The notes below the pieces were generated by a model. The model was given only the letters and a program-made list of their open reading frames with translations. It was not told the origin of the DNA and ran no database searches. 54,950 nt of DNA from a virus, in IMG/VR virus record IMGVR_UViG_3300017971_000060; one strand, given 5' to 3'. The translations under genes and the position numbers were made by a program. Below, one piece after another: positions 4,614-41,971 of this stretch. Numbering within the stretch: the first letter of the stretch is position 1; each line of letters begins with the position of its first letter.

Positions 4614-6107
4614 ATGGCAGACAAATCTTCAGTTAGCACGAAACACCCACAATACGAAGCGAATATTTTTGCTTGGAGACAAGTACGTGACTGTGTTGAA
4701 GGTGAGGCACAAGTCAAGCGCCGTGACACGGTGTACCTACCTATGCCTAGTGGTATGCTGAACGCTAAGAAAGCGCCGTCTGTTCAGAATACAACGTCTT
4801 CCTCTTCTGCCCTGACACAGAGAAACAGGGAGATTGACCAAGACCTGAACCCAAACTATCACAGCAACCCGGCTTTCATGGCGTACAAGACGCGGGCACA
4901 GTTGCCTGACATTACCGCTTTCAGTTTGCGGGGGCTTATCGGCGTGGCGTTGCGCAAAGACGCTACCATTGAACTACCAGACAACCACAACTACCTTGAA
5001 GGGATGATTGAAGACCTTTACGGTTTCTCTATCTCTGAAGTTCTCCAGACCGGGCGGTTGGGGTACCTTGTCGATATTGCTGAAGACGGCAACTTCAAGA
5101 TACTACCCTATGAGGCAGAAAGCATTATCAACTGGCGGGAAGAGACCAAGAAAGACGTTGAAGGCACCAACACCGCCACTACTATGGTAGTGTTGGAGGA
5201 ATACGTGCCGAAACCTGATGACCCGTTTGCCTCTGAACTCACCATGCAGTACCGGGTACTGGAACTGAAAGACGGCGTGTACACTTCTACGTTATACAAT
5301 GCTGACGGTGACATTATCCCGGTCAAGGTGGGGGAAGTCCTGATGGAATCCATTACCCCTATGTACAAAGGGAAAACGCTCAACAAGATACCGTTTTTCT
5401 TTGCTGGCAGCACCAACACAAACCCGACTCCCAACGTCATACCGTTGGGTAGTATCAGTTCTGTAGCCATTCAGATATACATGAAGACGGCTGACTTGTC
5501 TCAGTCTGAATTCCTGAGTTGCAACCCGACACTGGTACTGACAGGGGTGTCAAAAGACGATGCCCCTACCATTGTAGGGTCAACTGTAGCAATATGTCTT
5601 CCTGACCCTGAAATGAACGCTTTCTACACCACTACTGACACAGCAGCGTTACAACATGTCATGTCTCACATCAAAGACCTCTTTGAACAGGCTGTTGCTT
5701 ATGGCGCTAACCTGCTAGGTGGAACCGCCAAGAGCGTGGAGAGTGGTGAGGCACTCCGGTTGCGCCAGTCAGCGGCAAGCGCTACCCTCATTTCCGTAAT
5801 CAGGAACGTTGAGAAAGCGTTTGACGACCTCTTAATCACTATTGCAATGTGGAGTGGCGGCAACCCCGAAAATTACAACTTTGACCCTGACAAGGAACTT
5901 GTTGACCTCAACCTGACGGCTCAGGAAATCACTGCTCTTGTAGCGGCGTGGATGGCACAAGGACTCAGTCAGGAAAGTCTGGTTGATAACTTGCGGCGGG
6001 CTGGTTATGTAGTGGAAGGCAGAACAGCCCTTGACGAAATCGCTGCTATCATAGCAGAAGGGCCACAGGGTACCACTGCTGGAGACGGCGCTACAGGTGA
6101 CGAATGA
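4614..6107 (+). CDS. Portal protein, 497 aa
   Basis: GGAGGA lies 6 nt upstream of ATG 4614. N-terminal pattern W.QVRD..EGE..VK....VYLP is as in DUF4055-type portals. Position after TerL fits. Confidence 0.8.
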   Translation: MADKSSVSTKHPQYEANIFAWRQVRDCVEGEAQVKRRDTVYLPMPSGMLNAKKAPSVQNTTSSSSALTQRNREIDQDLNPNYHSNPAFMAYKTRAQLPDITAFSLRGLIGVALRKDATIELPDNHNYLEGMIEDLYGFSISEVLQTGRLGYLVDIAEDGNFKILPYEAESIINWREETKKDVEGTNTATTMVVLEEYVPKPDDPFASELTMQYRVLELKDGVYTSTLYNADGDIIPVKVGEVLMESITPMYKGKTLNKIPFFFAGSTNTNPTPNVIPLGSISSVAIQIYMKTADLSQSEFLSCNPTLVLTGVSKDDAPTIVGSTVAICLPDPEMNAFYTTTDTAALQHVMSHIKDLFEQAVAYGANLLGGTAKSVESGEALRLRQSAASATLISVIRNVEKAFDDLLITIAMWSGGNPENYNFDPDKELVDLNLTAQEITALVAAWMAQGLSQESLVDNLRRAGYVVEGRTALDEIAAIIAEGPQGTTAGDGATGDE

Positions 6108-7222
6108 GCGACTCAGTCGAAGACCTGTATGTCAGGCACCAAGTAGACCTTTCGAGATACGCCAGTAGTTTTGCTGGCACTATGTCTGCTGTCCTGAAAC
6201 GTGCCCATCAAGACATAGCTAACCGGGTGCTGACAGAGAAGCAAACACCCTTCCAGCGTCAGCGGGCGTTAGCTATTGCTGGTGACATCCAAGCCATGCT
6301 TGAAGCCGGATATGCTCAAACGGTGGGCAAGACTGCCACAGAGATGCGGGGGCTTGTTGTCAACGAAGCGGCGTGGAATCAGGAAGCGCTACAGGTGGCT
6401 TCTGGAGAAAAAGCTGTCCGGGTGTCTGCTGGTGCTGTATATGTAGCGGCAACTGCCAAACCCTACGAAGGGGCTACAATGAAGTCATGGTATGACAAGT
6501 TGCAGCGTGATGAACAGCGTTTACTGATAAACACAGTGCAGACAGGATTTGTCACAGGCCAGACCAACCAGCAAATAGCAAACAGTCTCAAGCCGGTGTT
6601 CAGAAGGGCTGAAAACAACGTGTCTACCATAGCGCGTACTTCTGTACAGCACTATGCCGGGGCTGCTCGACTTGCCACCCTGAACGAAAACAAGAACATA
6701 ACAGACGGCTACATTTGGGCTTCCACCCTTGACGGGCGTGTGACCATGGAGATTTGCGCACCACGAGACGGTCAACACTACACCCTGACAGGTGAACCGA
6801 TTGACCACCCATATCCTGAACTTGGTGGGCCGGGTAATGCGCACTGGAACTGTAGGTCTACAGCAGTGCCACGTATCAAGGGGGTTAATCAGGAAAAGGA
6901 TGACCGGCCAAGTTTTGACTACAATCAGGAAGCCAACACAAAGGCGCGGTCAACGGTTAGGCGTGACCCTGACACTAACAAGGTAGTGCCAAAGGGTGCC
7001 CGTAACCCTGACGCCAAGCGCATGGGTAAGCCGGTGCAAACTACTGACAAGTTCCCCGGCTGGTTTGAACGTCAGCCAAAGTGGTTCCAGCAAGACTATT
7101 TGGGGCCAGAACGTTTCAAGATGTATGATAGTGGCACACTGTCACTGAAAAGTTTCAGCACCAAGGACGGTAGTCTCTTGACGCTGAATGAACTGAGACA
7201 GCGTTTTCCGTCTGTTTCTTAA
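6104..7222 (+). CDS. Head morphogenesis protein (Mu F / SPP1 gp7-like)
   Basis: Pattern ICAPRDGQHYT...GPGNAHWNCRST. ATGA overlap with the portal stop. Confidence 0.7.
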   Translation: MSDSVEDLYVRHQVDLSRYASSFAGTMSAVLKRAHQDIANRVLTEKQTPFQRQRALAIAGDIQAMLEAGYAQTVGKTATEMRGLVVNEAAWNQEALQVASGEKAVRVSAGAVYVAATAKPYEGATMKSWYDKLQRDEQRLLINTVQTGFVTGQTNQQIANSLKPVFRRAENNVSTIARTSVQHYAGAARLATLNENKNITDGYIWASTLDGRVTMEICAPRDGQHYTLTGEPIDHPYPELGGPGNAHWNCRSTAVPRIKGVNQEKDDRPSFDYNQEANTKARSTVRRDPDTNKVVPKGARNPDAKRMGKPVQTTDKFPGWFERQPKWFQQDYLGPERFKMYDSGTLSLKSFSTKDGSLLTLNELRQRFPSVS

Positions 7223-10685: not shown

Positions 10686-11083
10686 TGGGCACCTTTGCAT
10701 CACAACTCAAGGCATTCGATATCAAGACGCAGAACAAGATTGCCATGGTTGTACAGCGTACTGGTTTACGTATGCTTGCCAAGGTGGTCACACGTTCCCC
10801 GGTAGATACCGGGCGCTTTCGTGGTAACTGGCAGTTGCAGTTAAACGAAATCCCTCAAGGGGTAGTAGAAACGCTTGACAAAGACGGCGGGCCAACTATC
10901 TCAGAAGGTGAAAATGAATTGGCGGGGTTAGCCTTAGGCGACTCCATTTATATCGTCAACAACTTGCCGTATGCTCAGAAATTGGAAAACGGCCACAGTC
11001 AACAGGCACCTACCGGCATGGTGGCTATTACTGTAGCAGAGTTTAGCGGCATTGTTGATGAAGCGGCACAGTCTGTGAGATGA
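10685..11083 (+). CDS. HK97 gp10-like neck / tail-completion protein, 132 aa
   Basis: Motif SPVDTGRFRGNWQ. GAGGAAATAATG start overlaps the upstream TAA. The ORF-track start at 10637 is rejected. Confidence 0.6.
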   Translation: MGTFASQLKAFDIKTQNKIAMVVQRTGLRMLAKVVTRSPVDTGRFRGNWQLQLNEIPQGVVETLDKDGGPTISEGENELAGLALGDSIYIVNNLPYAQKLENGHSQQAPTGMVAITVAEFSGIVDEAAQSVR

Positions 11084-11087
11084 TTTT

Positions 11088-11849
11088 GTGGGGCAATTTG
11101 TACATGATCCTGACTTCAATGATCCTAGCGCTTGGGATATCGCGGGTTTCGGCGCGACTATCTCAGGTGGCCGGTTGCGTTACGTGCTGGCTGGGTCAAT
11201 ACGTTGCGCTCCTGAACCGTCCAAAAGGCCGGTCATCGGGCAGGACTACAAATACAGTGTCGATATTGCTGAACAAACCAACACTCTTGGTACTCAACAG
11301 GTACTTTTTGGCGGGCACACACTATGGGAGAAGTCTCAAGGGCCGGGTGTCTTTTCTGGTGACCTTGTTGCAATCACTGATGACGAACTTGTGTTTCAGG
11401 GATTGGCCGGGGCTACCTACCAAGTCGAAAGTGTTTCGATTGAGGACATCATGATAGACTACCCTTCAATTCGGCTGGGAATGCGGGCTATCCTGTTAGC
11501 GGTGCCGTCTCTCCCTACAGACATTGCCTTTGAGAACAGGGAGTTTGATCCCCCTGACGCCAAGACTCCTTACATACGGGAAACGCTTTTGCCCGGTGAA
11601 GAACGCCACGTTGCCAGCAACTCCATTATGGCAGTGGGTATTATGCAGTATGACATACTCTGGCCTGCTGGTGACGGCACGGAAGACCCCGAAGCACTGG
11701 CAGACGCTATTCGAGACGCTTTCAGGCCGGTTACTACGATAGACGCACACACTACAGTATATCGTGTTGACCGACTTGGCGGTGTTCCTGACGAAAAGTG
11801 GTATCGCATACCCATTCGTCTTACTTACCGTTCTTATTCTATACAGTGA
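11088..11849 (+). CDS. Tail-terminator-like protein (DUF4128-like C-terminal half) with ~120-aa N-terminal extra domain; in-frame internal start at 11451
   Basis: C-terminal pattern IAFENREFDPP....PYIRETLLPG...G..QYDI..P.G.G. GAGGA lies 4 nt upstream of the in-frame ATG 11451. Confidence 0.5.
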   Translation: MGQFVHDPDFNDPSAWDIAGFGATISGGRLRYVLAGSIRCAPEPSKRPVIGQDYKYSVDIAEQTNTLGTQQVLFGGHTLWEKSQGPGVFSGDLVAITDDELVFQGLAGATYQVESVSIEDIMIDYPSIRLGMRAILLAVPSLPTDIAFENREFDPPDAKTPYIRETLLPGEERHVASNSIMAVGIMQYDILWPAGDGTEDPEALADAIRDAFRPVTTIDAHTTVYRVDRLGGVPDEKWYRIPIRLTYRSYSIQ

Positions 11850-11856
11850 GCATTTC

Positions 11857-13971
11857 ATGGCATTCGTCCCTATAGATAACGGCTCTTTCGCAGATGACCC
11901 AAGCGCGGATAACCTGTTTGATGCGTTCAACGACACAAACGCCAACTTTGCAGAGTTGTATGCTCAGGTCAACGGCGGCGCTAACGTCTACTCAGTTGGG
12001 CCGGGTGGTGTCTACAGTACCATAAACGCTGCTGCTAATGCGCGGCGGGCGGCTGGTTACAAGTCTGCCACTATCGTTACAGGCACTGCCAACCAGATAC
12101 AGGTCGGCAACCAACACCGTTTGTGGCGTTTCACTGATTCCACTGACCTCACTAACTACATAGGTCAAGCTGTAGGCATTGAGTGGTCAGGATATTGCCC
12201 GGTGATAGCGTGGGTTATCGCTGCTGACGAAATCCTTATGAAGAGCAACCGACAGGACTCTTCCGGTACTGGTATCTCTCTTGAAGTTTTCACTATCAAC
12301 TACGCTACCATTTTCCTGACCCCTAACCACAAAGAGGTTATTGGCTCACTGTCTACAGGTGGTGTACCTGCTGTTGACTTGCAGAACTTGTACTTCACTA
12401 ATATCAGGGCAGACCGTGGCACAACGGTCATAATGAGTGAGAAAAACGCTAACCCGGCTGGCTACGTATTAGCAAAATTCTCTGGCTCTGAACTTCGGGT
12501 TGATGGATTGAACTTTACGTATAATCTCGACTTCACAAGCGGCGGGGCCGGGGTTTCCGGTGGGGTGGTAGTCACTTCCCCTACAGGTGGTTTGAATGAC
12601 TACTCAGCAGATTTGATATTTTCCCGTAGTGAATTCCGGGCGGGGCAACAGGATGCGTTTTTCCTTACCAGTCTGGCCGGGGTGAACGTCTTTGACTCTT
12701 TTGTAGAAAGTGAATGGGATTGTATACGCCAGTTCAACGGACGGGCTTTGAATGTTGACCGTTGTGAATTCCAGACACTTGTACGCAGAAACTACAATGG
12801 TTCTTGCCGGGTCATTGGCATAGGCACTAATTCTATACCGATACACCACAACCACGATGTAGATGTTCGCAATTCCATTATTCGTGGGTATGATGACCTT
12901 CAAACAGGTGCCTTCCCCGGCACTTATGATGCTAACAGAACTGCATTAGTAGAGTTGTATGGTGGGGTGTCAAACCAGTGCCGTATTCGTGTACACGACA
13001 ACTACTTTGAATCTAGTATCGAAGACCATAGAGTTGTCAATGAAACTGAATTCAGGGCTGTTGCTGTTTACCATGATAGTTTGAATTTGCCCCCGGCTGT
13101 TTTTGATGTGTACGACAACTTGTTCAATATGAAGAACAATGATACTATTGAACCGGGGCTTGACAATATCGACAAACAAGGGGCTGCTGCTGTTTCTGGT
13201 ACCTTTGACAATACCGCTGCTGGTACCATTGACTTTGTTGCGGCGGGGTTTCAGGTTGGTAACACTATACAAACTTCAGGGTATGTGGACACAGCTAATA
13301 ACGGGTTTGGTGTCATTACAGCAGTAACCGCAAATTCTATAACTGCTGACAAGGTTGGTGGTAACTGGGGTGCAGCAGAAACAGGCACTGGTAATGAAGA
13401 AATAAAACGATTTATGTTTCAGGGCAACTCTGAACTCATAAGTAGCGACAGCGCCAACTACGTTATCAACCAATGGAATAACCGGGTTGTTCCGGGTTCC
13501 ATGGATGTCAATGGCAGCAACGTAAACAACTTCCCTGTATTCCACGGGCGTGGGCCAGAGGGGTATGGTGGTCTTTACATAGCAAACGGGTCAACGGCAC
13601 AGGGCAGTCTTACGGGCACCCCTGTCAAGTTCGCATTGTGGTCTGCTAACTTACCAGCCCAAAACATGACCCCTGTGTTTGGCTCTAACGATATTTATGT
13701 TGACAAGGCCGGGGTATATAAGGCGGCTTTCCATTTAGCGTTCACAGGGACTACAAATGGACAGTTTGACTTTGAGCTATATGTCGATGGTGTTGCGACA
13801 GGGCTTATAGCTGAAAGGAAATTAGGAACAGGCACAGATGTAGGCTCTTGTTCCTTTTCGGGGTTGGTGACAATCCCTAATGACGGGGCGTATGTGGATG
13901 TCCGGGTTGCAGCGACAACCGGAACTTCCATAACAGCAGTTCACGCTCAGTTAGTGCTAACGAATCCGTAG
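11857..13971 (+). CDS. Large fibre/tailspike-like protein, 704 aa: beta-helix-like middle, 60-aa module shared with the tail tube protein, C1q/TNF-like C-terminus
   Basis: ATG 11857 follows the stop of the previous gene. Repetitive N/G/S/T/V-rich strands are present. The C-terminal pattern VDKAGVYKAAFHLAF...ELYVDG...VDVRV resembles C1q-type jelly rolls. Confidence 0.55.
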   Translation: MAFVPIDNGSFADDPSADNLFDAFNDTNANFAELYAQVNGGANVYSVGPGGVYSTINAAANARRAAGYKSATIVTGTANQIQVGNQHRLWRFTDSTDLTNYIGQAVGIEWSGYCPVIAWVIAADEILMKSNRQDSSGTGISLEVFTINYATIFLTPNHKEVIGSLSTGGVPAVDLQNLYFTNIRADRGTTVIMSEKNANPAGYVLAKFSGSELRVDGLNFTYNLDFTSGGAGVSGGVVVTSPTGGLNDYSADLIFSRSEFRAGQQDAFFLTSLAGVNVFDSFVESEWDCIRQFNGRALNVDRCEFQTLVRRNYNGSCRVIGIGTNSIPIHHNHDVDVRNSIIRGYDDLQTGAFPGTYDANRTALVELYGGVSNQCRIRVHDNYFESSIEDHRVVNETEFRAVAVYHDSLNLPPAVFDVYDNLFNMKNNDTIEPGLDNIDKQGAAAVSGTFDNTAAGTIDFVAAGFQVGNTIQTSGYVDTANNGFGVITAVTANSITADKVGGNWGAAETGTGNEEIKRFMFQGNSELISSDSANYVINQWNNRVVPGSMDVNGSNVNNFPVFHGRGPEGYGGLYIANGSTAQGSLTGTPVKFALWSANLPAQNMTPVFGSNDIYVDKAGVYKAAFHLAFTGTTNGQFDFELYVDGVATGLIAERKLGTGTDVGSCSFSGLVTIPNDGAYVDVRVAATTGTSITAVHAQLVLTNP

Positions 13972-14063
13972 TGTAGGATAGCATGGCAGTTCTAGCAAGT
14001 GATAGTACGGTGCTGGCGTCTAGTTCGTCAGTTTTGGCAAGTGGATATGATGGAGGTTTTATT

Positions 14064-15254
14064 ATGGCTTTAGCAAGTGGTACACGAGTACAGCTTATCT
14101 ATGCTGCGGAAACGACGAGAGGTGTAATTCCCAGCCCGATGAGTTCAACGATTTTCCGGGCAACAAGTCGGAATATCAACCCACAAATCAACCTGTTGCG
14201 TTCAAATGAAGTTCGTGCTGACCGTCAGCGCACCACTTCACGCCACGGGTTCAACCAGATTGTTGGCTCTCCCGGTTTCGAGTTGTCACTGGAAGCTTAT
14301 GATGACTGGCTCGAAGCGGCAATGTCTGGCACTTGGGCAACTGCCCCTGACACGACAGCAGCGCAGACAATCGACCAAACCACAATCACCCCTTCCGATG
14401 AAGCGGTATTTGTATGGTCTGCTGGTGATTACATTGCCGCTGGTTTCCGGGTTGGTATGACTGTTGAGACTACCGGGTATGCTGGTGCGTCCAACAACAA
14501 AGTTGCAACTGTCATTGAAGTAGCGTCTGCTACTTCAATGAAACTCAAGTCCAACGATGGTACTAACTTCGGTGCCCTTGAAGGCGGTGACGGTGATGAG
14601 CGCATTCAGGCTACTGGTGAAGTGATCGATATCGGTCAGGTACTTCGCACCTTCTGGATTGAGCGCGGTTTTTTGGATGTCGCACAGTATCAAGGATTCC
14701 TTGGTTGTGCAATCAACCAGATGAATATCCAGATTCAACCGGAACAGATGGTTGGCGGCTCTTTTGACGTACTGGGTATGTCTGCCAGTGGAATGCTTCC
14801 GGTTTCGTTGGGTGGTACTCCAACAGCAGCAGCGGCCAATGACCCCTTCAGTGCGTTTGACGGCGCGGTCTATGAAGCTGACGGGGAGTCTTCTGTTGTG
14901 ACCGGGTTGAACTTCACCCTTAACAACAACCGTTCCCTGAATGCAGTTGTGGGTAGCAAGTTCTCTCCTGATGTGTTTGAAGGCACAGCAGAGATCGGCG
15001 GGGAACTGACAGTGTACTTTGAAGACGCAACACTGTACAACAAGTTCTTCCTTGAGACTGTCAGTTCGCTGGCGGTGCGTGTGGATGACATCAACGGCAC
15101 TGATTTCATGGTTTTCGGGTTCCCGTCAATCAAGTACAGTGGGGCTGACATGGATCCACCACAACAGGGGCCGGTACCTATCACTATGCCGTTTGAGGCA
15201 CAAGTGGATAGCGTGTCCGGTACGTCCATGTGGATTCAGAAGAGCAACGTCTAA
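14064..15254 (+). CDS. Major tail (tube) protein, 396 aa
   Basis: GGAGG lies 7 nt upstream of ATG 14064. Position immediately upstream of the chaperone/tape-measure genes fits. Confidence 0.6.
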   Translation: MALASGTRVQLIYAAETTRGVIPSPMSSTIFRATSRNINPQINLLRSNEVRADRQRTTSRHGFNQIVGSPGFELSLEAYDDWLEAAMSGTWATAPDTTAAQTIDQTTITPSDEAVFVWSAGDYIAAGFRVGMTVETTGYAGASNNKVATVIEVASATSMKLKSNDGTNFGALEGGDGDERIQATGEVIDIGQVLRTFWIERGFLDVAQYQGFLGCAINQMNIQIQPEQMVGGSFDVLGMSASGMLPVSLGGTPTAAAANDPFSAFDGAVYEADGESSVVTGLNFTLNNNRSLNAVVGSKFSPDVFEGTAEIGGELTVYFEDATLYNKFFLETVSSLAVRVDDINGTDFMVFGFPSIKYSGADMDPPQQGPVPITMPFEAQVDSVSGTSMWIQKSNV

Positions 15255-27139: not shown

Positions 27140-27751
27140 TTAGTCCTTAGTAGCGCAAACCGGGCCAATCCCTGCTTCAATGCTCTCCGGGGTGGTGAGT
27201 TTGCGACCGCACCGGCAACAAGTTCCCTCATGCAGTACCTCAAGGAAACTAGGCAGACGGTCAGCGTTCAGTGCATTGAAGAACCATGCAATAGACTGGG
27301 CGCTCTTGGCGGTTGCCTTTATGCCAGACTTGCGGCCATGTGACCAAACCAGCTTGTCACCCCGTACCCGGAATTGACCAAGGTACTGGTAGTCACTGGT
27401 GTTGTCTGCCCCTGTCAGGACAGCCACAAAGCGCGGGTAATCACCTTCGGCGTCAGCCGGGGTGGACACTTTGAAGGTGTAGCGGTTGCCAGACTGAGTA
27501 TTCAGCATGGTAACAGTACCGTGACCGCCAACAAGGTAGTCAACGATAGCAGCCCGGTCTGATAGTGGGCGGCTGTTGGTTTCAGGAAACTCCCTGTCCA
27601 GATAGGTAGTCAGTGCGTCACGGTCATCGAAAGAGATAGGGTGAGCGCGGTCACGGGTAGGTGAGAAGTGCAGGTAAGGGCCACTGTTGTCAACCTCTTT
27701 ACGCAGAATGCCCACTTCCTTGCCGTTGCGTGTGATCTGTTCAGTCATCAT
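27140..27751 (-). CDS. DUF6011-like protein, 203 aa
   Basis: C-terminal CCRCGRKLTTPESIEAGIGPVCA. Invariant TIR ctggagaactgacATG. Confidence 0.65.
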   Translation of the reverse strand: MMTEQITRNGKEVGILRKEVDNSGPYLHFSPTRDRAHPISFDDRDALTTYLDREFPETNSRPLSDRAAIVDYLVGGHGTVTMLNTQSGNRYTFKVSTPADAEGDYPRFVAVLTGADNTSDYQYLGQFRVRGDKLVWSHGRKSGIKATAKSAQSIAWFFNALNADRLPSFLEVLHEGTCCRCGRKLTTPESIEAGIGPVCATKD

Positions 27752-29328: not shown

Positions 29329-29835
29329 CTAGTCCAGTAGTGTTCTCGGGATCGTGAACCAGTGCCGTCCGGCGTTGCGCCAGCTATTCATGCTGCTGTC
29401 CCTGTCCGGGTAGTTGTCAGGTGCGACGATGAACACGGCAGAAGTCTTCATAAGAACACTCAAGCAGTTTTTGCAGGGTGGTCTGGTACTAACTACGTAG
29501 TAGATTTCGTCAGGGGAAAACCCGTTGCGGGCGGCTTCCATGACGGCGTTGACTTCTGCGTGAACAGCGCGGCAAGTGTTACTACCTCTGACCATAGTGT
29601 CAGCGTCATCGGTGTTGCAGGTGCATTCGCCAAGGCAATCAGGTAGGGTGTTTGACCCTGTTCCTAACAGGGTAGCGTGTTTGTCCAACACGATACACTT
29701 GACGCTGGCCCGTGGGCATTGGCCTATGTCCTGACCACTGGCCTGTTCAGCATCGATAAGCTGATTTATAATGCCAAAGGCGAACTTGGCTACATCTTCT
29801 CTGTTGATTTCGTGTTGCTCTCTTTGTGCTTCCAT
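29329..29835 (-). CDS. Deoxycytidylate (dCMP) deaminase, 168 aa
   Basis: Zinc motifs VHAEVNAV and PCKNC with correct spacing. RBS AGGAGACTATAATG. Confidence 0.8.
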   Translation of the reverse strand: MEAQREQHEINREDVAKFAFGIINQLIDAEQASGQDIGQCPRASVKCIVLDKHATLLGTGSNTLPDCLGECTCNTDDADTMVRGSNTCRAVHAEVNAVMEAARNGFSPDEIYYVVSTRPPCKNCLSVLMKTSAVFIVAPDNYPDRDSSMNSWRNAGRHWFTIPRTLLD

Positions 29836-29858
29836 TATAGTCTCCTGAGACTGTTGTA

Positions 29859-30644
29859 CTACAGATTAAGTGCCTGACGTTTCCTGTCAAACGCCGTTGC
29901 TACTCCACCACCCCATTCAGTAAGGTGGATGTTTGGGCCTATTCCTGTAGCGTATTCTTCCAGAATAGCTACAGCCCGTTTTCGTTGTGGCGGCAAAATG
30001 TGCCCACTCATAGTATGGTGGTAGTAGACACCCATGTCCACCCCTATTTCAGCCGCCACGTACTGTTGAAGTTTGGTGAACACGGCAACGTCTTGGCAGA
30101 CAGTTGTAGTGTAGTTGTTTGACCGCATGGACGTACACATATCCAGCTTGCCATGCCGTACCCGGAAGTTGAACCCAAGAGTACAGGGATATTCGCAGTT
30201 GGTTTCACCACGTTCCAGCGCTTTGCCTACAAAACGGTCTTTGTCATCCAGAATCATAACACAAGCGCGGCGGGTGGTGCCCTGAGTTTCCTGCAACATC
30301 TGGATAGCATAAGGAAGTTGCTCGACAATGCGCGGGCCGTATGCTACACAGATCAAGGGCTTTCCCGGTTGCTGAAAGAGGGTGCCGTAATTTTTGGCTT
30401 GCGGGTTGACGTCAAAGAACTCTTCAGGAATAGTAGCCTGTCCGTCGATGATCCAGTTGAACATCAAGGTAGAGAACATCGGGTTGAAGTTGCGGTTCTC
30501 GGACTGTAGCTCTATCCTTGTAGGGTCAGTGAGCGCGAAAGTGTGGTTGATAAGTTCCTCGTCTTCAGACAGGAACGCTTGCATCAGGTTAGCGTGATAA
30601 ATATCATGCCAAAACCCGGTTATTGGTTCTGGAACTATGTGCAT
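29859..30644 (-). CDS. Thymidylate-synthase-fold pyrimidine C5 transferase, probably dCMP-specific (hydroxymethylase or methylase), 261 aa
   Basis: Ungapped match to the ThyA core: AYGPRI, TTRRACVMILD, YPCTLGFNFRVRHGKL, MRSNN...CQDVAVF, SGHI. Asp sits at the ThyA Asn177 position. Confidence 0.7.
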   Translation of the reverse strand: MHIVPEPITGFWHDIYHANLMQAFLSEDEELINHTFALTDPTRIELQSENRNFNPMFSTLMFNWIIDGQATIPEEFFDVNPQAKNYGTLFQQPGKPLICVAYGPRIVEQLPYAIQMLQETQGTTRRACVMILDDKDRFVGKALERGETNCEYPCTLGFNFRVRHGKLDMCTSMRSNNYTTTVCQDVAVFTKLQQYVAAEIGVDMGVYYHHTMSGHILPPQRKRAVAILEEYATGIGPNIHLTEWGGGVATAFDRKRQALNL

Positions 30645-30654
30645 AGTGGTCTCC

Positions 30655-31590
30655 TCAGACTTTTGTGAATACGAATACGTGGTGGGTGGCGCTAGTCTGT
30701 TCCCCTGTTTTGGTTAGCGCGCCACTCAAGCTATCGGCCAGCGCTACTACGTCAGAAGGGGTCAAACATGCCCCTGCTTCAGTCATAGCTTCCATTCTCC
30801 AGTCAAGCCGGAAATTTGGCTGCTGTTCGATTACAACCAGTTTGCCCCCGGTCTTCAGAAGTGCTACCAGAGTAGTCATAACCGTGTGCTGCTTTTCCTT
30901 GCCAAGAACGTGCAGCACTTCACTGACGATAATGGTGTCCAGAGAACTTAACTGGAAGTGGTTGGTGACGTCAGCGAAATCAGCCACTATGATTTCAGTG
31001 GACTGGTTGCCAGCCAACCGGGTGCCGGGTGCCTTGTCATACAGGTAGCCGATAGCGTCAGGGCAAGCGTGTAGAGTAGCTTCAAGATACACGCCATCAC
31101 CACCCCCGAAGTCTAGCACTTTCTTGTCAGAGCCGGGTGAAGTCAGACACGCCACGTACCGTAGCAGATTGGGCATGAATTCTTCAGTGTAGACTGCCAG
31201 AGCAGCCCGCAACTTTGAGTATTTGCGCGGGTCAGTGACATAGTTTCGGTCAAGTTGCTGGTTCATCATGCTGAACTCGTAGTCCACAAGCGGGGCAATC
31301 TTGACCAGCCGTTCTCCACTAGCAGACAGTTTCAGAGAGTCCCCATCACCGTCCAGCCAGCCGAATTCCTCCCAAATCTTGATGACGTTCTGCAACTTGT
31401 GGACAGTGGGGTTGTACTCCCAAATTCGATTGTTGACCCCTGCAAGGATAGCGGGAACAAGCCATGCCGCTTCCAGAATGCCGTACACAGAAGGGCCAAT
31501 TTCCGATATATATGGCAAACGTACATCAAAGCCGTTTGGTATTGCGTTGTCAGGGTGTTCTTCCCCGACTCGGTAGCCGTCATTTTCCAT
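30655..31590 (-). CDS. Class I SAM-dependent methyltransferase of the small-molecule O-methyltransferase type, 311 aa
   Basis: Motifs VLDFGGGDG, ADFADV, SEVLHVLGKEK and GGKLVVIE after a ~150-aa helical N-terminal domain. No DNA-MTase motifs seen. Confidence 0.7.
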   Translation of the reverse strand: MENDGYRVGEEHPDNAIPNGFDVRLPYISEIGPSVYGILEAAWLVPAILAGVNNRIWEYNPTVHKLQNVIKIWEEFGWLDGDGDSLKLSASGERLVKIAPLVDYEFSMMNQQLDRNYVTDPRKYSKLRAALAVYTEEFMPNLLRYVACLTSPGSDKKVLDFGGGDGVYLEATLHACPDAIGYLYDKAPGTRLAGNQSTEIIVADFADVTNHFQLSSLDTIIVSEVLHVLGKEKQHTVMTTLVALLKTGGKLVVIEQQPNFRLDWRMEAMTEAGACLTPSDVVALADSLSGALTKTGEQTSATHHVFVFTKV

Positions 31591-32605
31591 CTTTTGCCTC
31601 CAGAGTAGTGATAACGTTGCTGCAAATCCAGCTATCTAGTGAAGCCGGTGTGTTGTTGCGGTGCATATCATACCGGATGAAAGCTTCGTTGTCCACTGAG
31701 GATAGTTCCTGTGGTTTGAAGTGGAACACTTCGCCCTGTTGTGGTAGGCACGAATTGAACATGTGGTAGACATCCTGCATCTTTTCGTGTTCGACATGAC
31801 CGTACAACTCGGTGCGGGCCTGAACCCCTGCAACATAAGTTTCCAGCCAAAGGTCTTCGTTGGTTGGCACTGACAGGATAGAGACATTTTGCTCTGAGTC
31901 TGTGAACGCTTTCCAGTTCTGCCATGGGTGCATTTCGCCACCCCGGTAGACAAGTGAGTAAATAGGGTGAGACAGCCAAGCCCGCTCAAGAACTACTACA
32001 GTATCCTTGGCCATGGCAGCGGCGTAGTACAATGCCCCTGTCCTGTAAGTGTGCATGTGTTCTTCAATGGCTTCAGACCAGTAGAGATGAATGTACTCGC
32101 CCCCGGTCAACTCGCAAATCCGCTCTGACAGGGTAGTCTTTCCTGAGCCATCCGGCCCGTCAATCAGGATAAGCCCCTTGTACCGGCCAGCGAGTGCCCC
32201 CGGCTGAAGGCGGGTAGCGGTACCCGAATCTATCAGGTCATCCAGAACCGGGCCTTGCCAGCCGTCTGGTTTGTTGATTTCCTGTTTCCACCCTCGCCGT
32301 TGCTTAGCCGGGTCAAGAACTTTCGTCATATTGGCGGCGTGTACCCTTCTGAAAGCCTCATCAAAATTCCAGCCGTTGCGGTGAGCAGTACCACAAGCAA
32401 AGTAGACAAGATCAACAAGGGCATCCAGTTGCTCGTGTTGGTCACCATTGAAAACAGCTTCTTCATATTCGTCAAGTTCCTCATGCAGACAGGTGAGCCG
32501 GAATTTCTGTTCATCCGTACCCAGTAAGCGCGGGCCATCGTTGTAGGCCAGCCCGAATTTTTCGTGGAATTCACGTACCAGTTGATAGGGTGTTTTAACT
32601 GCCAT
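31580..32605 (-). CDS. Fusion protein: MazG-like NTP pyrophosphohydrolase (N) + thymidylate-kinase-like dNMP kinase (C), 341 aa
   Basis: N-terminal part: FHEKFG...LHEELDEYEEA...LDALVDLVYF...VHAANMTK. C-terminal part: P-loop IDGPDGSGKTT and ERAWLSHPIYS (DRY..S..AY-like). ATG 32605 follows ctggagaaccgtg. Confidence 0.7.
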   Translation of the reverse strand: MAVKTPYQLVREFHEKFGLAYNDGPRLLGTDEQKFRLTCLHEELDEYEEAVFNGDQHEQLDALVDLVYFACGTAHRNGWNFDEAFRRVHAANMTKVLDPAKQRRGWKQEINKPDGWQGPVLDDLIDSGTATRLQPGALAGRYKGLILIDGPDGSGKTTLSERICELTGGEYIHLYWSEAIEEHMHTYRTGALYYAAAMAKDTVVVLERAWLSHPIYSLVYRGGEMHPWQNWKAFTDSEQNVSILSVPTNEDLWLETYVAGVQARTELYGHVEHEKMQDVYHMFNSCLPQQGEVFHFKPQELSSVDNEAFIRYDMHRNNTPASLDSWICSNVITTLEAKDGK

Positions 32606-32744
32606 CACGGTTCTCCAGTATGGTAGTAGTCATGTGGGTGTCACCGTCTTTGTCTTCAACGGTATCGATAGCCAGCCCCATGTAGGCCAGCCCCTTGATA
32701 AGTAGTTTGACAGGAACGCTGTCAGGAATGTGCAACACTATCAT
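32595..32744 (-). CDS. Small protein, 49 aa (below ORF-track cutoff)
   Basis: ATG 32744 follows ctggagaactgaa (invariant TIR). Overlaps the start of the fusion gene. Confidence 0.45.
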   Translation of the reverse strand: MIVLHIPDSVPVKLLIKGLAYMGLAIDTVEDKDGDTHMTTTILENRDGS

Positions 32745-38814: not shown

Positions 38815-39585
38815 TTAGGCTACGTGAGCCAGTTCGTTGACAAAGTCAGACTGAATCTGAGTTTTGTGGTTGATCGTGTCCATGGACACCCCGGCTTCAC
38901 TTTGCGGCTTGACCGCTTCAGTGCAAGCGTTGAGCAACCGCCATGCAGTGAAACCCTGTTCGGCGTGTTCTTCATAGGAAGGTCTGTCCCACTCCTGAAC
39001 AGCGCGGGCCATCTGACCGCCAGCCAGTCCACCCCGACGAAGCAACTCAACCAGTGCAGCGTCACCGTCTTTCTGCTTCATCTGGAAGTTGCGAAGACCG
39101 TCAAAAGTCAACTGTTGCTTCTCAGCGGCTTCAGGAATCTGACTTACAGCGGTGTCAACCAGTGACGGCAAGCGGGTCAGAATGTTGGTAGTCTGCTTGG
39201 TAGAGAACACCCCAAGGTTGCCGTGGAAGCAAAGGTTAGAGCAGCACATAACGTTGCTGCCCAAAGCTATGGCCCGTGGAACAGAGTAGTCATGGGCACC
39301 ACGAAGACCAAGGAAGATAGACCAATCATCGTCACGAATCAGGTCACCAGACTTGGCACCGATTTCCATCATGCCAAACATGCGGTTGTGGTTCTCAGCA
39401 ATCGCAAACTCTTCATGGATAATCTCAAGTCCGTGGCTGCTCAGAGAGTGGTCAACCATCTCAATGAAGTCCACGAAAGGTACCGGGCGGTGACGGTTGC
39501 CCAAAGGGGCAGGAGTGTCAAGGTGGCCCATCTGCTTGCGGGTCATGATTACATCGTTGCGTGCATCGTACATTAATTTGCTCAT
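38815..39585 (-). CDS. DUF932-family protein, 256 aa
   Basis: Core RGAHDYSVPRAIALGSNVMCCSNLCFHG resembles DUF932 (S.D.S....G..v.vC.N). TIR ctggagaacgacATG. Confidence 0.65.
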   Translation of the reverse strand: MSKLMYDARNDVIMTRKQMGHLDTPAPLGNRHRPVPFVDFIEMVDHSLSSHGLEIIHEEFAIAENHNRMFGMMEIGAKSGDLIRDDDWSIFLGLRGAHDYSVPRAIALGSNVMCCSNLCFHGNLGVFSTKQTTNILTRLPSLVDTAVSQIPEAAEKQQLTFDGLRNFQMKQKDGDAALVELLRRGGLAGGQMARAVQEWDRPSYEEHAEQGFTAWRLLNACTEAVKPQSEAGVSMDTINHKTQIQSDFVNELAHVA

Positions 39586-39634: not shown

Positions 39635-39692
39635 ATTGTAACAGAAGTTTCGTGAATGTCAAGCTTTTTCGTCTACCCCCGAAGGGGTAGAC
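39635..39692 (-). promoter_or_regulatory. UUCG-tetraloop hairpin (39671-39692) + promoter TTGACA(39662-39657)-16 nt-TACAAT(39640-39635)
   Basis: Same hairpin sequence and 8-nt distance to the -35 as at 28692-28750. Confidence 0.6.
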
Positions 39693-39928: not shown

Positions 39929-40082
39929 GTCAGTTCTCCAGTTTTTGCGGTTGCGGTCTCAAGACCGTGGAGAAGAGTATGAGGGAACAGTTTACACTTG
40001 TCAAGCATTTTCTTTCCTTACACAAACAGGGGGTTACACGCAAAAGCCCGTAACCCCCTGTTCCTCTAACGAAAGAAAATTT
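39929..40082 (-). promoter_or_regulatory. Intergenic cassette copy 5 (minus): long hairpin 40007-40082, TTGACA(40004-39999)-17 nt-CATACT(39981-39976), leader hairpin cggtcttgagaccg
   Basis: Reverse complement read directly. Confidence 0.65.
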
Positions 40083-40105: not shown

Positions 40106-40261
40106 TTAGCCTAACGGAATGCCGTGTTTGGTCTTGAAGGCGTCAAAAATCATCCACATGAGTTGATCCGCAAAGTGGTGACCAAGACCAAACAGGAAAC
40201 CGATAATGACTAGCATTACAGCGTAAGCCCAAAGGGGTTGGTTGTTTGGTAAGTTGCTCAT
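40106..40261 (-). CDS. Small membrane peptide, 51 aa, translationally coupled to the U32-like gene
   Basis: ATGA overlap with the stop of 40258..41379. TMD WAYAVMLVIIGFLFGLG. Below the ORF-track cutoff. Confidence 0.4.
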   Translation of the reverse strand: MSNLPNNQPLWAYAVMLVIIGFLFGLGHHFADQLMWMIFDAFKTKHGIPLG

Positions 40262-41379
40262 AGCGCCGGGTCTTTGTATGGATTGGAAATCACTTCGTAC
40301 CAGTCATCACAGTAGAAACAACTGGAACAGAGTTTGTTGTTGCAGTCAAGCTTGTGGGTTAGCCACGGGTCAATGAAGGTTTGCAGCGCTTCAGCCGGAA
40401 TGGAAAACCGCTGCTTATGCTCAGACAGTTCGTCTTTCTCTGAGTAGATTGTTTCCAAAGGCTTCCATAGGCCAAGCAAGTTTCCAGTGTAATCCCGCCG
40501 TAAATAGGATTCAGCCACCATTTTGATGTACGGGGTCTTGGCAGTCCGGCCTGTCACCTTGAAGTTGTGAATGCCTCTGTTCTCATAGTGCCGTAGCCAT
40601 TGCGGTAGGACAAAGCCGGTTCGCAGCCAGTCAGCCGGGTTGTGGCCCCTGCTAGACATGCACTTACCCATCGGGTAGTTTTGTATCAGCTTGGCGTCTT
40701 TCTTGGTCACGTTTTCGGAATGGCACTGGTAACAGCTATCCCTGTAGATGCAATGCGCCATGTTCGGCGTGTCACCTACTCCTGTAGTGTTTGCGCAGAA
40801 CTCATTCACCATGACCTCATACTCCATGCCAAGCGCTTCACAGGCAACAGCGAAGTATTGCAGTTTGGTGAAATCCCGATTGTAGAGAATATTCCCGACA
40901 ACTTTGTCTACACGGGGGTCAAGTTCCTTGTAGGCTGCTAGTTGCATAGGGGTGTCCACATGCATGATAGTGGATAACTCTATCCTGAGTTTCTCTTTTG
41001 GCAGATAGCGCCGGAAAAACTCTATGAGCATAGGGTTAGACACAATCAAGCGGTGAACGCCAATGTCCACAAGGAACTTTGTCCACTCAATCAGTTCTTC
41101 CTTGCGGGCCATGAATTCAGCCTTGCTACCTAGATACGGCGCGTTCATTGTGTAGTTGAACCTGATTCCGTAACTCAGGAGTAGCGCCACATGGTTGGCA
41201 AGGTTGCTGTTTGTTATGTCTGGCAGTCTGAAATCCGGTCGTGCAGCCAGCCATGCGTGTGCCTTGTCACTACCGTAAACCTCTGTGATCCGGTCTTCAG
41301 CGGTGCCGTGTTCCCGATTGATTTGGTCAAGCACTTCGGGCATGTGCTTATCGAAATTGTAGCCAACGTTTAACTTCAA
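40258..41379 (-). CDS. Peptidase-U32-like protein (Fe-S hydroxylase family candidate), 373 aa, TTG start
   Basis: GGAG lies 8 nt upstream of TTG 41379. The core GIRFNYTMNAPYL...FLVDIGVHRLIVSNPMLIEFFRRYLP..LRIELSTIMHVDT resembles the U32 barrel. Cys clusters CIYRDSCYQCH and CNNKLCSSCFYC are present. Confidence 0.5.
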   Translation of the reverse strand: MKLNVGYNFDKHMPEVLDQINREHGTAEDRITEVYGSDKAHAWLAARPDFRLPDITNSNLANHVALLLSYGIRFNYTMNAPYLGSKAEFMARKEELIEWTKFLVDIGVHRLIVSNPMLIEFFRRYLPKEKLRIELSTIMHVDTPMQLAAYKELDPRVDKVVGNILYNRDFTKLQYFAVACEALGMEYEVMVNEFCANTTGVGDTPNMAHCIYRDSCYQCHSENVTKKDAKLIQNYPMGKCMSSRGHNPADWLRTGFVLPQWLRHYENRGIHNFKVTGRTAKTPYIKMVAESYLRRDYTGNLLGLWKPLETIYSEKDELSEHKQRFSIPAEALQTFIDPWLTHKLDCNNKLCSSCFYCDDWYEVISNPYKDPAL

Positions 41380-41410
41380 TGTAGTATCTCCTGTTATTGG
41401 GTGTTACCAG

Positions 41411-41914
41411 TTATCGAATATCGCCAGTCCCGATTTTCCTAACACTGCTTTGGAATATATCTGGCAACCTCGCTATGTGCTTGTCAGCATTCCCCAAAAG
41501 TATGTAGTACGCTTGAGTATGGGAGCAGCCAAATAACATACCCAAAGTTGTACGTTTCATGTTGGGGTCAGCAGTATAAGCCAATCTCATAGCAAGGGAG
41601 TTATATCCGTTTGTTTTGAAGGGTCTTTCATAAATGACAGGTTCACAAGCCGGGTGCGTTCTCTCCATAACTTGTTCTATCATTTGAGAACCGTTGTTAA
41701 GTCCTAACATTTGTTGAACTTCCAGTGAATCGCAATTTGGGTTACTATCCTGATAGTCCATAATCAAGCGGGCTGTTTCGGGCGGCATGGGTTCATTCAT
41801 GCGCAGTGGGTCTTCAAATTCTTCAATAGTAGGGTGAAATCGTTTTGCTACTTCCATGACAGCTTCAAAATCAACATTGTTGTGTACTTCAATAGTAATG
41901 CGGCATGTATTCAT
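41411..41914 (-). CDS. Hypothetical protein, 167 aa, first gene of the U32-like operon
   Basis: caGGAGAATGACGATG places the start at 41914. Confidence 0.6.
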   Translation of the reverse strand: MNTCRITIEVHNNVDFEAVMEVAKRFHPTIEEFEDPLRMNEPMPPETARLIMDYQDSNPNCDSLEVQQMLGLNNGSQMIEQVMERTHPACEPVIYERPFKTNGYNSLAMRLAYTADPNMKRTTLGMLFGCSHTQAYYILLGNADKHIARLPDIFQSSVRKIGTGDIR

Positions 41915-41934
41915 CGTCATTCTCCTGATAAAGT

Positions 41935-41971
41935 GAAAAAGCCCCTACACTTGTAGGTGCAGGGGCTTTTC
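41935..41971. terminator. Rho-independent terminator after the SSB gene (A-tract / stem / T-tract, usable in both directions)
   Basis: aaaaagcccct...aggggctttt. Confidence 0.6.

Follow-up and report, generated by a model that had tools for sequence, protein, structure and literature searches.

Phage-encoded U32-family proteins as candidate oxygen-independent hydroxylases of DNA pyrimidine precursors

Background

RlhA (YdcP) of Escherichia coli, a member of the U32 protein family, forms, or is required to form, 5-hydroxycytidine (ho5C) at position 2501 of 23S rRNA in a reaction that is dependent on prephenate and iron-sulfur (Fe-S) chemistry and independent of O2. It is a cellular protein of 653 amino acids with large extra domains, acting on one rRNA residue. 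Other members of the family, TrhP and the UbiU-UbiV pair, have tRNA or polyprenyl-phenols as substrates. Each of their products can also be made by a second, non-homologous and O2-dependent hydroxylase: the rhodanese TrhO next to TrhP, and flavin monooxygenases of the UbiI type (UbiI, UbiH, UbiF) next to UbiU-UbiV. In the case of TrhO and TrhP, the U32 route alone is retained in anaerobes, and aerobes have just the O2-dependent one (PMC6599085). Prephenate is the oxygen donor in UbiU/V-dependent hydroxylations (PMC10990095) and is required for TrhP-dependent formation of 5-hydroxyuridine (ho5U) as well as for RlhA-dependent formation of ho5C; one glutamate and two cysteines are essential in both TrhP (E162/C170/C177) and RlhA (E161/C169/C176) (PMC6599085). 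Here we analyze a phage protein of this family, 373 residues long, encoded in a 54,950-nucleotide stretch of viral DNA (IMG/VR record IMGVR_UViG_3300017971_000060; this whole stretch is further called the window), and its relatives in other phages.

Hydroxylated cytosine is already known from phage DNA. In RB69 and Acinetobacter phage DLP3, cytosine is replaced by arabinosylated 5-hydroxycytosine (5hoC) (Lee et al., NAR 2026, PMC13326640). The precursor, 5-hydroxy-dCMP (5hodCMP), is made by a homolog of thymidylate synthase (TS) that uses flavin and O2, as shown by 18O2 labelling; the combination of the substitution D169N with N177D and L143E is predictive of this activity, and nine of nine tested variants were active (PMC13326640). 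These synthases, gp48 of RB69 and gp80 of DLP3, are unrelated to U32 proteins in fold and cofactor and need molecular oxygen (PMC13326640). Another gene of the RB69 cluster, gp50, appears in Table 1 of the same paper only under "sugar or heterocycle reductase", a guess of its authors, and the tRNA and rRNA hydroxylation pathways are mentioned there only as unrelated (PMC13326640). A precedent for recruitment of prephenate-dependent enzymes comes from Synechococcus phage S-B43, whose CmoA/CmoX system for carboxymethyl-cytosine turns enzymes of the tRNA xo5U pathway to the modification of DNA cytosine (PMC12783734). The S-B43 system differs in that it employs Cx-SAM and a C5-methyltransferase acting on DNA, with no U32 protein and no hydroxylation. 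No paper linking U32 proteins, prephenate or chorismate mutase to phage DNA modification was found in our search, which excludes He et al. 2026 and Mahler et al. 2025.

Results

The gene of the 373-residue protein occupies positions 40258-41379 on the minus strand of the window, the strand that carries all window features given below with coordinates. Its TTG start at 41379, preceded by the Shine-Dalgarno sequence GGAG (41388-41391) with an 8-nt spacer, had been read in this way in the original prediction and agrees with the N-termini of 71 aligned homologs; the peptide segments quoted there and both of its cysteine groups (C210/C216/C219 and C346/C351/C354/C357) are also present. Judged by its profile and its modelled fold, the protein is a genuine but divergent member of the U32 family, and the resemblance to the U32 barrel noticed earlier thus holds. 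Pfam PF01136 (Peptidase_U32) matches it with 30.0 bits at a gathering cut-off of 22.4, covering profile positions 2-60 of 233, and precomputed matches to the same profile exist for 116 of 120 listed homologs. PHROG 5757, labelled "peptidase", matches end to end (1.8e-86). A profile built from 72 homologs aligns in hhalign with E. coli UbiU, UbiV, TrhP and RlhA over 210 columns with 97.1% probability (E 7.6e-11). The AlphaFold2 (AF2) model is of high quality (pLDDT 94.3, pTM 0.92), and its best Foldseek match in PDB is 5D88, the U32 protein Mk0906 with a TIM barrel (E 5.4e-8, TM 0.67 on the target); the matches that follow are generic TIM barrels, about 500-fold weaker. A profile search of PDB sequences gave no U32 match, so that the PDB relative came from fold comparison alone, and a fold search of BFVD added just one T4-like homolog.

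The subfamily around this protein is large, with 555 clusters at 50% identity at E<=1e-30 and 1259 at E<=1e-10. Eight cysteines are conserved across it: C195, C210, C216, C240, C346, C351, C354 and C357. Among 101 representatives, reaching down to 23% identity, C210, C240, C351 and C357 are invariant, C195, C346 and C354 are present in at least 90%, and the consensus NEFCxxxxCxxRxxCY can be derived. According to hhalign, C210 and C216 correspond to UbiU C169 and C176, the two cysteines of the U32 motif, C240 (in "YPMGKC") to the UbiU ligand C232 (in "YPTLC"), and the segment "FKVTGRT" to "KIEGR". Three of the four ligands of the UbiU [4Fe-4S] cluster (C169/C176/C193/C232) therefore have aligned counterparts in C210, C216 and C240, and the fourth could be C195. 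The conserved cysteines fall into two putative sites of four, one at the position of the U32 cluster and the other in a C-terminal CX4CX2CX2C. We propose that E193, C210 and C216 are the counterparts of the essential glutamate and cysteines of TrhP and RlhA. E193 lies within the invariant NEFC and, like C210, C216 and C240, is conserved among the 101 representatives; its equivalence is interpretive, and hhalign sets E187 opposite UbiU E161. The spacing of the U32 motif deviates from that of PROSITE, with CX5C instead of CX6C, and the window protein has a 10-residue insert in addition.

Of the two Pfam domains that the original prediction named for a check, only the Peptidase_U32 profile was recovered: in a scan at E<=1 no Peptidase_U32_C domain or other RNA-directed extension appeared in the 373-residue protein, PF01136 being the only match. 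Since the protein lacks Peptidase_U32_C and carries a family-specific CX4CX2CX2C module at the C-terminus, we regard it from its sequence as belonging to a distinct U32 subfamily and not as an ortholog of TrhP or RlhA. Compared with RlhA, with which the window protein shares the family and the counterparts of the essential residues at about 15% overall identity (hhalign), the phage protein differs in its short length, its C-terminus and its location in cassettes of deoxynucleoside monophosphate (dNMP) metabolism.

A phage copy of such a gene had seemed unexpected at first sight. The surprise does not last: PHROG 5757 is a large phage family, and the nearest sequenced relatives of the window protein, about 40% identical over 97% of its length, are found in 222 T4-like phages. 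The T4-like homolog is RB69 gp50 (RB69ORF050c), located within the cluster for arabinosyl-5hoC. It belongs to the same subfamily, has the same conserved cysteines and lies next to the 5hodCMP synthase. The window copy, in contrast, belongs to a siphovirus not related to these phages, which lacks sugar genes and has no chorismate mutase beside U32. In the BASEL phage AlbertHofmann (MZ501047), the homolog is annotated as "UDP-arabinose biosynthesis" in GenBank. For comparison of gene contexts, 57 viral and metagenomic loci were collected and reduced to 34 distinct ones at <90% identity of the U32 protein, and genes within +-6 kb of U32 were clustered; 15 further loci, mostly from metagenome-assembled genomes (MAGs), came from a scan in which each prokaryotic species was represented by one genome. 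TS homologs were sought within +-8-10 kb of the U32 gene.

Prephenate is the product of chorismate mutase. Genes of chorismate mutase, DAHP synthase or both adjoin or overlap the U32 gene in seven of the 34 distinct loci, and also in L067 and in Serratia phage LC53. Cluster c10, in which DAHP synthase and type-II chorismate mutase are joined in one protein (Pfam DAHP_synth_1 2.5e-36, CM_2 7.9e-18), is located two genes upstream of U32 in L019, L021 and L029, and in L017 a DAHP synthase overlaps the U32 stop codon by 4 nt. We also considered that the DAHP_synth_1 domain might be a KDO8P synthase acting on phage arabinose-5-phosphate, and rejected it in view of the NCBIfam scores (DAHP synthase about 160 bits versus about 52) and the fused chorismate mutase. 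Directly 3' of U32, usually with a 4-nt overlap, a small chorismate mutase was recognized by our own hidden Markov model (HMM), made from the sequences above, in 13 T4-like loci and in L041, and GenBank annotators have independently named the small T4-like open reading frame (ORF) "chorismate mutase". In LC53, the U32 gene (4992-6161), chorismate mutase (6158-6502) and TS-type synthase (6499-7197) follow one another with 4-nt overlaps, and the DNA of this phage carries arabinosylated 5hoC (PMC13326640). The other consumer of prephenate known in phages is CmoA (PMC12783734); no CmoA-like gene is annotated in the AlbertHofmann and LC53 clusters, the two whose GenBank annotation was inspected. 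By analogy with UbiU/V, the phage U32 proteins may then use prephenate as oxygen donor.

RB69-like phages have a different small ORF of 57-79 residues (L001:9149-9388, RB69ORF049c-like, 79 residues), which shares 4 nt with the stop end of the U32 gene and which neither Pfam nor our HMM identifies as a chorismate mutase. In L025, L032, L035 and L046 this ORF is followed by chorismate mutase, an order not seen in RB69 and AlbertHofmann.

The remaining neighbors point to nucleotide modification. Homologs of the RB69 gp46:47 DNA glycosyltransferase occur beside U32 in 20 of the 34 distinct loci, AfhE-like enzymes of UDP-arabinose synthesis in 13, arabinose-5-phosphate isomerase in 10, thymidylate-kinase-like (dNMP-kinase-like) proteins in 10 + 5, HAD phosphatase in 8 and dCMP deaminase in 6, and dUTPase_2/MazG genes are found among the neighbors as well. 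Four architectures can be distinguished. In phages of about 45 kb with PolIII-alpha, the order is primase, an unknown gene, dUTPase_2, kinase, glycosyltransferase, U32 and PolIII-alpha. The second comprises glycosyltransferase, isomerase, AfhE, optionally another glycosyltransferase and the DAHP synthase-chorismate mutase fusion, HAD phosphatase and U32. T4-like phages have polymerase, isomerase, AfhE, phosphatase, U32, sometimes the small ORF, chorismate mutase, TS homolog, glycosyltransferase and kinase. The fourth is that of the window's clade, in which U32 is either contiguous with a MazG-kinase, a methyltransferase and a deaminase (L002, L007) or located beside genes of single-stranded DNA-binding protein (SSB) and PolA (L004, L050, L057 and the window). 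In L002, L003, L006 and L007, the homolog of the deaminase is immediately 5' of U32 or overlaps it. Matches to TS-family HMMs among the 34 loci are confined to the T4-like ones, the window and L022, and the L022 gene was rejected as a hydroxylase, being an ordinary ThyA with L143/D169/N177. Thirty of the 34 loci are thus without a TS-type hydroxylase within +-10 kb, glycosyltransferase being often present there, and therefore nothing else in most of the cassettes could make the acceptor hydroxyl.

Several individual contexts deserve mention. A 466-kb JGI contig resembling a jumbo phage (L006:944-11086) has MazG/dUTPase_2, a radical SAM/SPASM enzyme, a 402-residue unknown protein, thymidylate kinase, UDG and PolIII-alpha, followed by dCMP deaminase and U32 with a 4-nt overlap. 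L051 (7135-17428) and L060, the latter from a Bacillota MAG with its second U32 gene at 13212-14345, contain two U32 paralogs with bacterial-looking flanks. Their neighbors are a radical-SAM/SPASM enzyme, a deoxynucleoside kinase, an NT5C 5'-nucleotidase and a nucleoside 2-deoxyribosyltransferase, further an NMN-type transporter, an AlaX-like protein and two methyltransferases, so the cluster looks like an island for salvage or biosynthesis of modified deoxynucleosides. The radical-SAM/SPASM gene accompanies U32 in both L006 and L051. In L011, a 297-residue ORF (11080-11973) overlapping the U32 stop has a sub-threshold similarity to TAGT, the TET-associated glycosyltransferase (22.6 bits versus 27.5), and may be a second type of DNA glycosyltransferase in U32 cassettes.

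Presence of the two candidate hydroxylases follows the oxygen lifestyle of the hosts. Phages of Acinetobacter, a strict aerobe, have the TS-type synthase and lack U32; phages of facultative anaerobes (Enterobacterales, Shewanella) have both; contigs binned with obligate anaerobes (Bacteroidales, Clostridia and others) have U32 and no TS-type synthase nearby. AfhE is present in 369 sequenced phages, 57 of which infect Acinetobacter. The 222 phages with U32 are those of Enterobacterales, Shewanella phage Thanatos-2 and phages of a few other genera, and Acinetobacter is outside their ten commonest genera, which limits it to at most 3 records. Acinetobacter phage AM101 has its phosphatase and TS genes directly side by side, and neither U32 nor chorismate mutase occurs in 41.6 kb. 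Because both AM101 and E. coli Dhakavirus WG01 do without them, the pair of U32 and chorismate mutase is an accessory insert that is not needed for arabinosylation. The T4-like U32 proteins are 80-100% identical across phages of Escherichia, Klebsiella, Proteus, Serratia, Yersinia, Erwinia and Shewanella, whereas the adjoining AfhE reaches no more than 42-72% identity among phages from several of these genera, which suggests very strong constraint on the U32 (+ chorismate mutase) insert or its recent horizontal spread.

The 15 loci of the genome scan come from MAGs assigned to Bacillota, Tannerella, Oscillospiraceae, Phocaeicola, Lachnospiraceae, Erysipelotrichales, Angelakisella, Eubacteriales, Gastranaerophilales, Eggerthellaceae and others. 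Most of these taxa are obligate anaerobes. No TS-type hydroxylase was found nearby in any of the 15 loci, and 14 of them have no TS-family gene at all in the vicinity, the exception being an ordinary ThyA in L072. In L067 the U32 gene is followed by chorismate mutase and kinase, and L062 has a glycosyltransferase, isomerase and AfhE. The sequence TS-only, both, U32-only parallels the distribution of TrhO and TrhP (PMC6599085), and on this pattern the reaction of the phage U32 proteins would be independent of O2.

The window itself is a siphovirus genome of about 55 kb with terminase, portal, major head and tape measure proteins, and its replication module consists of DUF2800 nuclease, Enc34-type SSB, PolA and SNF2; PolA is only 34-37% identical to those of Pseudomonas, Xanthomonas (Xp12) and related phages. 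In the block shared with replication genes, four genes are contiguous at 29329-32608. The first (31580-32608) codes for a MazG/PRA-PH pyrophosphohydrolase (Pfam PRA-PH 1.4e-13; PHROG 671 and 761) fused to a P-loop dNMP-kinase-like domain, for which the Thymidylate_kin/AAA matches in Pfam are weak. It is followed by a class-I S-adenosylmethionine (SAM) methyltransferase with matches of O-methyltransferase type (30655-31590; Pfam Methyltransf_23/12/11/25/2), a TS homolog with the signature of 5hodCMP synthases (29859-30644; Pfam Thymidylat_synt) and a protein of the dCMP deaminase family (29329-29835; Pfam dCMP_cyt_deam_1, PHROG 174). The TS homolog has E143, C146, T147, M165, N169 and D177, as do the homologs of RB69-like phages, AM101 and WG01, and its proposed product is the same as that of RB69 gp48 and DLP3 gp80. 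Together, the TS homolog with E143/N169/D177, the dCTPase/kinase fusion and the deaminase make up a predicted cytosine-replacement set, and on this evidence the window encodes the standard recipe for complete replacement of cytosine by 5hoC. The MazG domain would remove the canonical dNTP and the kinase domain would phosphorylate the modified dNMP. Unlike the RB69/DLP3-type pathway, the window has no homologs of the API, AfhE, phosphatase or glycosyltransferase genes, with no glycosyltransferase among its non-structural ORFs of at least 250 residues and no sugar-nucleotide gene. Two further genes of the early/replication block are those of a DUF6011-containing protein (27140-27751; 56.5 bits) and of a DUF932-like protein (38815-39585); a DUF932-like gene (cluster c27) is also near U32 in L050 and L057.

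The methyltransferase sits in the window where tailoring enzymes usually are, and is a candidate tailoring enzyme for the 5-hydroxyl group. Only three homologs of it were found, its AF2 model is poor (pLDDT 52.6), and its Pfam and NCBIfam matches are limited to generic class-I and Methyltransf_2 ones, with no specific signal of CmoA, CmoB or TrmR, so that the tRNA xo5U pathway has no partner counterpart in it. Its gene is syntenic with U32 in L002, L007 and L004, and the L002 homolog matches PF00891. The original prediction had linked the methyltransferase with the U32 gene, 9 kb away, on a speculative basis; the link gains weight from L002 and L007, in which both are contiguous with MazG-kinase and deaminase. 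On account of this synteny in the window's clade and of the Methyltransf_2-type matches, O-methylation to 5-methoxycytosine is a reasonable guess. No description of 5-methoxycytosine as a natural DNA base was found in the literature searched. A fusion of guanylate kinase and class-I methyltransferase (426 residues; L033:7937-9217), encoded two genes upstream of U32, is a further combination of kinase, methyltransferase and U32, in a lineage unrelated to the window.

The U32 gene forms a trio with its two neighbors. Upstream lies an ORF of 169 residues from its first ATG (41411-41920), for which the alternative start at 41914, giving 167 residues as originally proposed, has the better GGAG spacing of 8 nt; as stated earlier, it belongs to no known family (no Pfam, PHROG or NCBIfam match), and an NCBIfam search of all three genes gave no match. 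Downstream, a 51-residue single-pass membrane peptide (40106-40261) is coupled by a true stop/start overlap, its ATG sharing ATGA with the TGA of the U32 gene, and its one hydrophobic helix reaches a 19-residue Kyte-Doolittle maximum of 2.04, in agreement with the earlier reading. A terminator-like hairpin followed by U5 (41936-41971; -25 kcal/mol, z -4.47), located after the SSB gene and partly recovered by a terminator scan, forms the upstream boundary of the trio, and a strong hairpin past the 51-residue ORF (40024-40063; -43.5 kcal/mol, z -11.25) the downstream one. With these hairpins on either side of the trio, both on the coding strand, it is plausible that the three genes at 40106-41920 are a separate transcription unit. 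The three-gene unit is thus plausible in the window as a hairpin-bounded one, and fails as a conserved one. The 169-residue ORF recurs only on L056, a short second contig with an identical U32 gene, and an unrelated 156-residue ORF takes its position in L057. A homolog of the 51-residue peptide (2e-27) is directly 3' of the U32 gene in L057, the closest relative (73% identical), an unrelated 78-residue transmembrane ORF replaces it in L050, and nothing equivalent stands beside U32 in the other loci; the peptide has no similarity to the 79-residue ORF that follows U32 in RB69-like phages. No match to the region was obtained when 50,697 phage genomes were searched with megablast. Just downstream of the hairpin at 40024-40063 are sigma-70-like promoter matches at 39976-40004 (10/12) and 39635-39662 (11/12), which are weak, as such matches are no more numerous than in shuffled sequences.

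Discussion

In our view, the 373-residue protein is probably an O2-independent, prephenate-dependent C5-hydroxylase of pyrimidines, most likely converting dCMP to 5hodCMP. This reading, anticipated in part by the original prediction, finds strong support in the genes of prephenate supply beside its homologs, in the nucleotide-modification cassettes and in the distribution by host oxygen lifestyle. The U32 protein would oxidize the pyrimidine ring of dCMP by two electrons, leaving via its Fe-S cluster or clusters; following the scheme proposed for UbiU/V (PMC10990095), prephenate would decarboxylate, its hydroxyl would be transferred to C5, and the products would be 5hodCMP and phenylpyruvate. 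The MazG domain would deplete dCTP, the kinase domain would phosphorylate the modified nucleotide, and the phage PolA would incorporate it, so that 5hoC replaces cytosine. The TS-type synthase encoded 9.6 kb away would do the same job when O2 is available, with U32 as its anoxic twin, and the hydroxyl would then probably be tailored by the neighboring O-methyltransferase-like enzyme. Such a pair would mirror TrhP/TrhO and UbiU-UbiV/UbiI-H-F, differing from them in the O2-dependent partner, which here is the flavin-using TS homolog.

As the target base, cytosine is favored over uracil, because the TS homolog has D177, a determinant of dCMP, because the glycosyltransferases are homologous to the 5hoC transferase, and because RlhA provides the ho5C precedent. 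The original prediction had thought of ho5U and its methylated derivative mo5U; with a TS-type 5hodCMP synthase (29859-30644) beside the methyltransferase, a cytosine deoxynucleotide is a likelier product than these bases in tRNA. The frequent overlap of deaminase and U32 genes means that dUMP or 5-hydroxy-dUMP may be an alternative.

Several points weigh against this reading. Aligned counterparts exist for only three of the four UbiU cluster ligands, the U32 motif departs from the exact PROSITE pattern, and the match to PF01136 spans about 60 profile positions only. RB69-like phages and the window's clade have no chorismate mutase of their own, and WG01 lacks both U32 and chorismate mutase despite its facultatively anaerobic host. 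Host assignment of the MAG contigs rests on binning, and TS copies located beyond the +-8-10 kb searched are possible, as the window itself exemplifies. We found no biochemical or genetic test of any subfamily member in the literature searched, and no in vitro system has yet reproduced direct hydroxylation by TrhP, RlhA or UbiU/V (PMC10990095, PMC6599085).

The best surviving alternative, which we still hold to be unlikely, is that the U32 protein hydroxylates a polymer, either cytosines of replicated phage DNA or host tRNA or rRNA in the manner of TrhP and RlhA. All characterized pyrimidine-directed U32 proteins act on RNA polymers (PMC6599085), and the conserved C-terminal four-cysteine module could be a nucleic-acid-binding zinc ribbon. 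Yet the U32 genes are embedded among those of dNTP pyrophosphatase and dNMP kinase, hallmarks of pre-replicative replacement at the nucleotide level, the protein lacks the Peptidase_U32_C extension of TrhP and RlhA, and the partner glycosyltransferases are homologous to enzymes modifying DNA, not RNA.

Somewhat less probable again is an accessory redox role or a prephenate- or chorismate-linked one without base hydroxylation, with the protein serving as a reductase, as an electron-transfer partner of the TS-type synthase or as an enzyme acting on the hydroxylated base. The guess of a reductase made for RB69 gp50 (PMC13326640) goes in this direction, and the T4-like phages and the window do carry a complete O2-dependent hydroxylase in addition. 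A helper of that enzyme would be out of place in the 30 of 34 distinct loci and the 15 of 15 genome-scan loci without it nearby, where glycosyltransferases needing an acceptor are nevertheless often present, and the residues conserved in the motif are the ones that TrhP and RlhA cannot do without in hydroxylation (PMC6599085).

A function in the synthesis of UDP-arabinose (a nucleotide sugar), which is the annotation in AlbertHofmann (MZ501047), is very improbable. U32 does adjoin AfhE-like and arabinose-5-phosphate isomerase genes in 13 of the 34 loci, but the two separate in both directions: the window, L002, L004, L007, L050, L057 and the PolIII-alpha phages have U32 without arabinose genes, and the Acinetobacter phages (57 records) and WG01 have arabinose genes without U32. 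Acinetobacter phages DLP3 and Maestro arabinosylate 5hoC, and no U32 homolog is listed for DLP3 (PMC13326640); moreover, a three-enzyme route to UDP-arabinose is already accounted for. The nucleotide-sugar role is thus largely refuted by the phyletic pattern. A collagenase-like (PrtC) protease, suggested by the family name and by deposited labels such as "peptidase" and "collagenase-like protease", is scarcely credible in a gene context consisting entirely of nucleotide metabolism, with cysteine clusters and a hydroxylase motif as the conserved residues and with the characterized RlhA, TrhP and UbiU/V tied to hydroxylation and not to proteolysis (PMC10990095, PMC6599085).

A bolder version of the hydroxylase reading is tentative, and we doubt it more than we believe it: U32, often with its own chorismate mutase/DAHP synthase, would be a self-contained anoxic module and the sole route to 5-hydroxypyrimidines in phages of obligate anaerobes, and in the window O-methylation would lead on to 5-methoxycytosine.

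Conclusions

U32 hydroxylases and phage 5hoC are already known, and the gene family itself is catalogued as "peptidase". What appears to be new is the view of this subfamily as an anoxic, prephenate-dependent route to 5-hydroxypyrimidine DNA, the linkage of U32 with chorismate mutase and DAHP synthase, the distribution over phages of aerobes, facultative anaerobes and anaerobes, and the clade bearing the methyltransferase. The sole characterized enzyme for 5-hydroxycytosine DNA needs molecular oxygen. If our reading is true, the U32 protein would be the first U32-type, prephenate-dependent hydroxylase acting on a DNA precursor and the first way to a hydroxylated DNA base that does without O2, and phage chorismate mutase and DAHP synthase would be auxiliary metabolic genes serving DNA modification. 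As a small U32 enzyme with a soluble substrate, it would offer a tractable system for prephenate-dependent hydroxylation in vitro. The "peptidase" gene of hundreds of T4-like phages that are candidates for therapy would obtain a function, and the clade containing the methyltransferase predicts a new DNA base. The same reading would explain the 5-hydroxycytosine-based hypermodified (camouflaged) DNA of phages infecting gut and other anaerobes.

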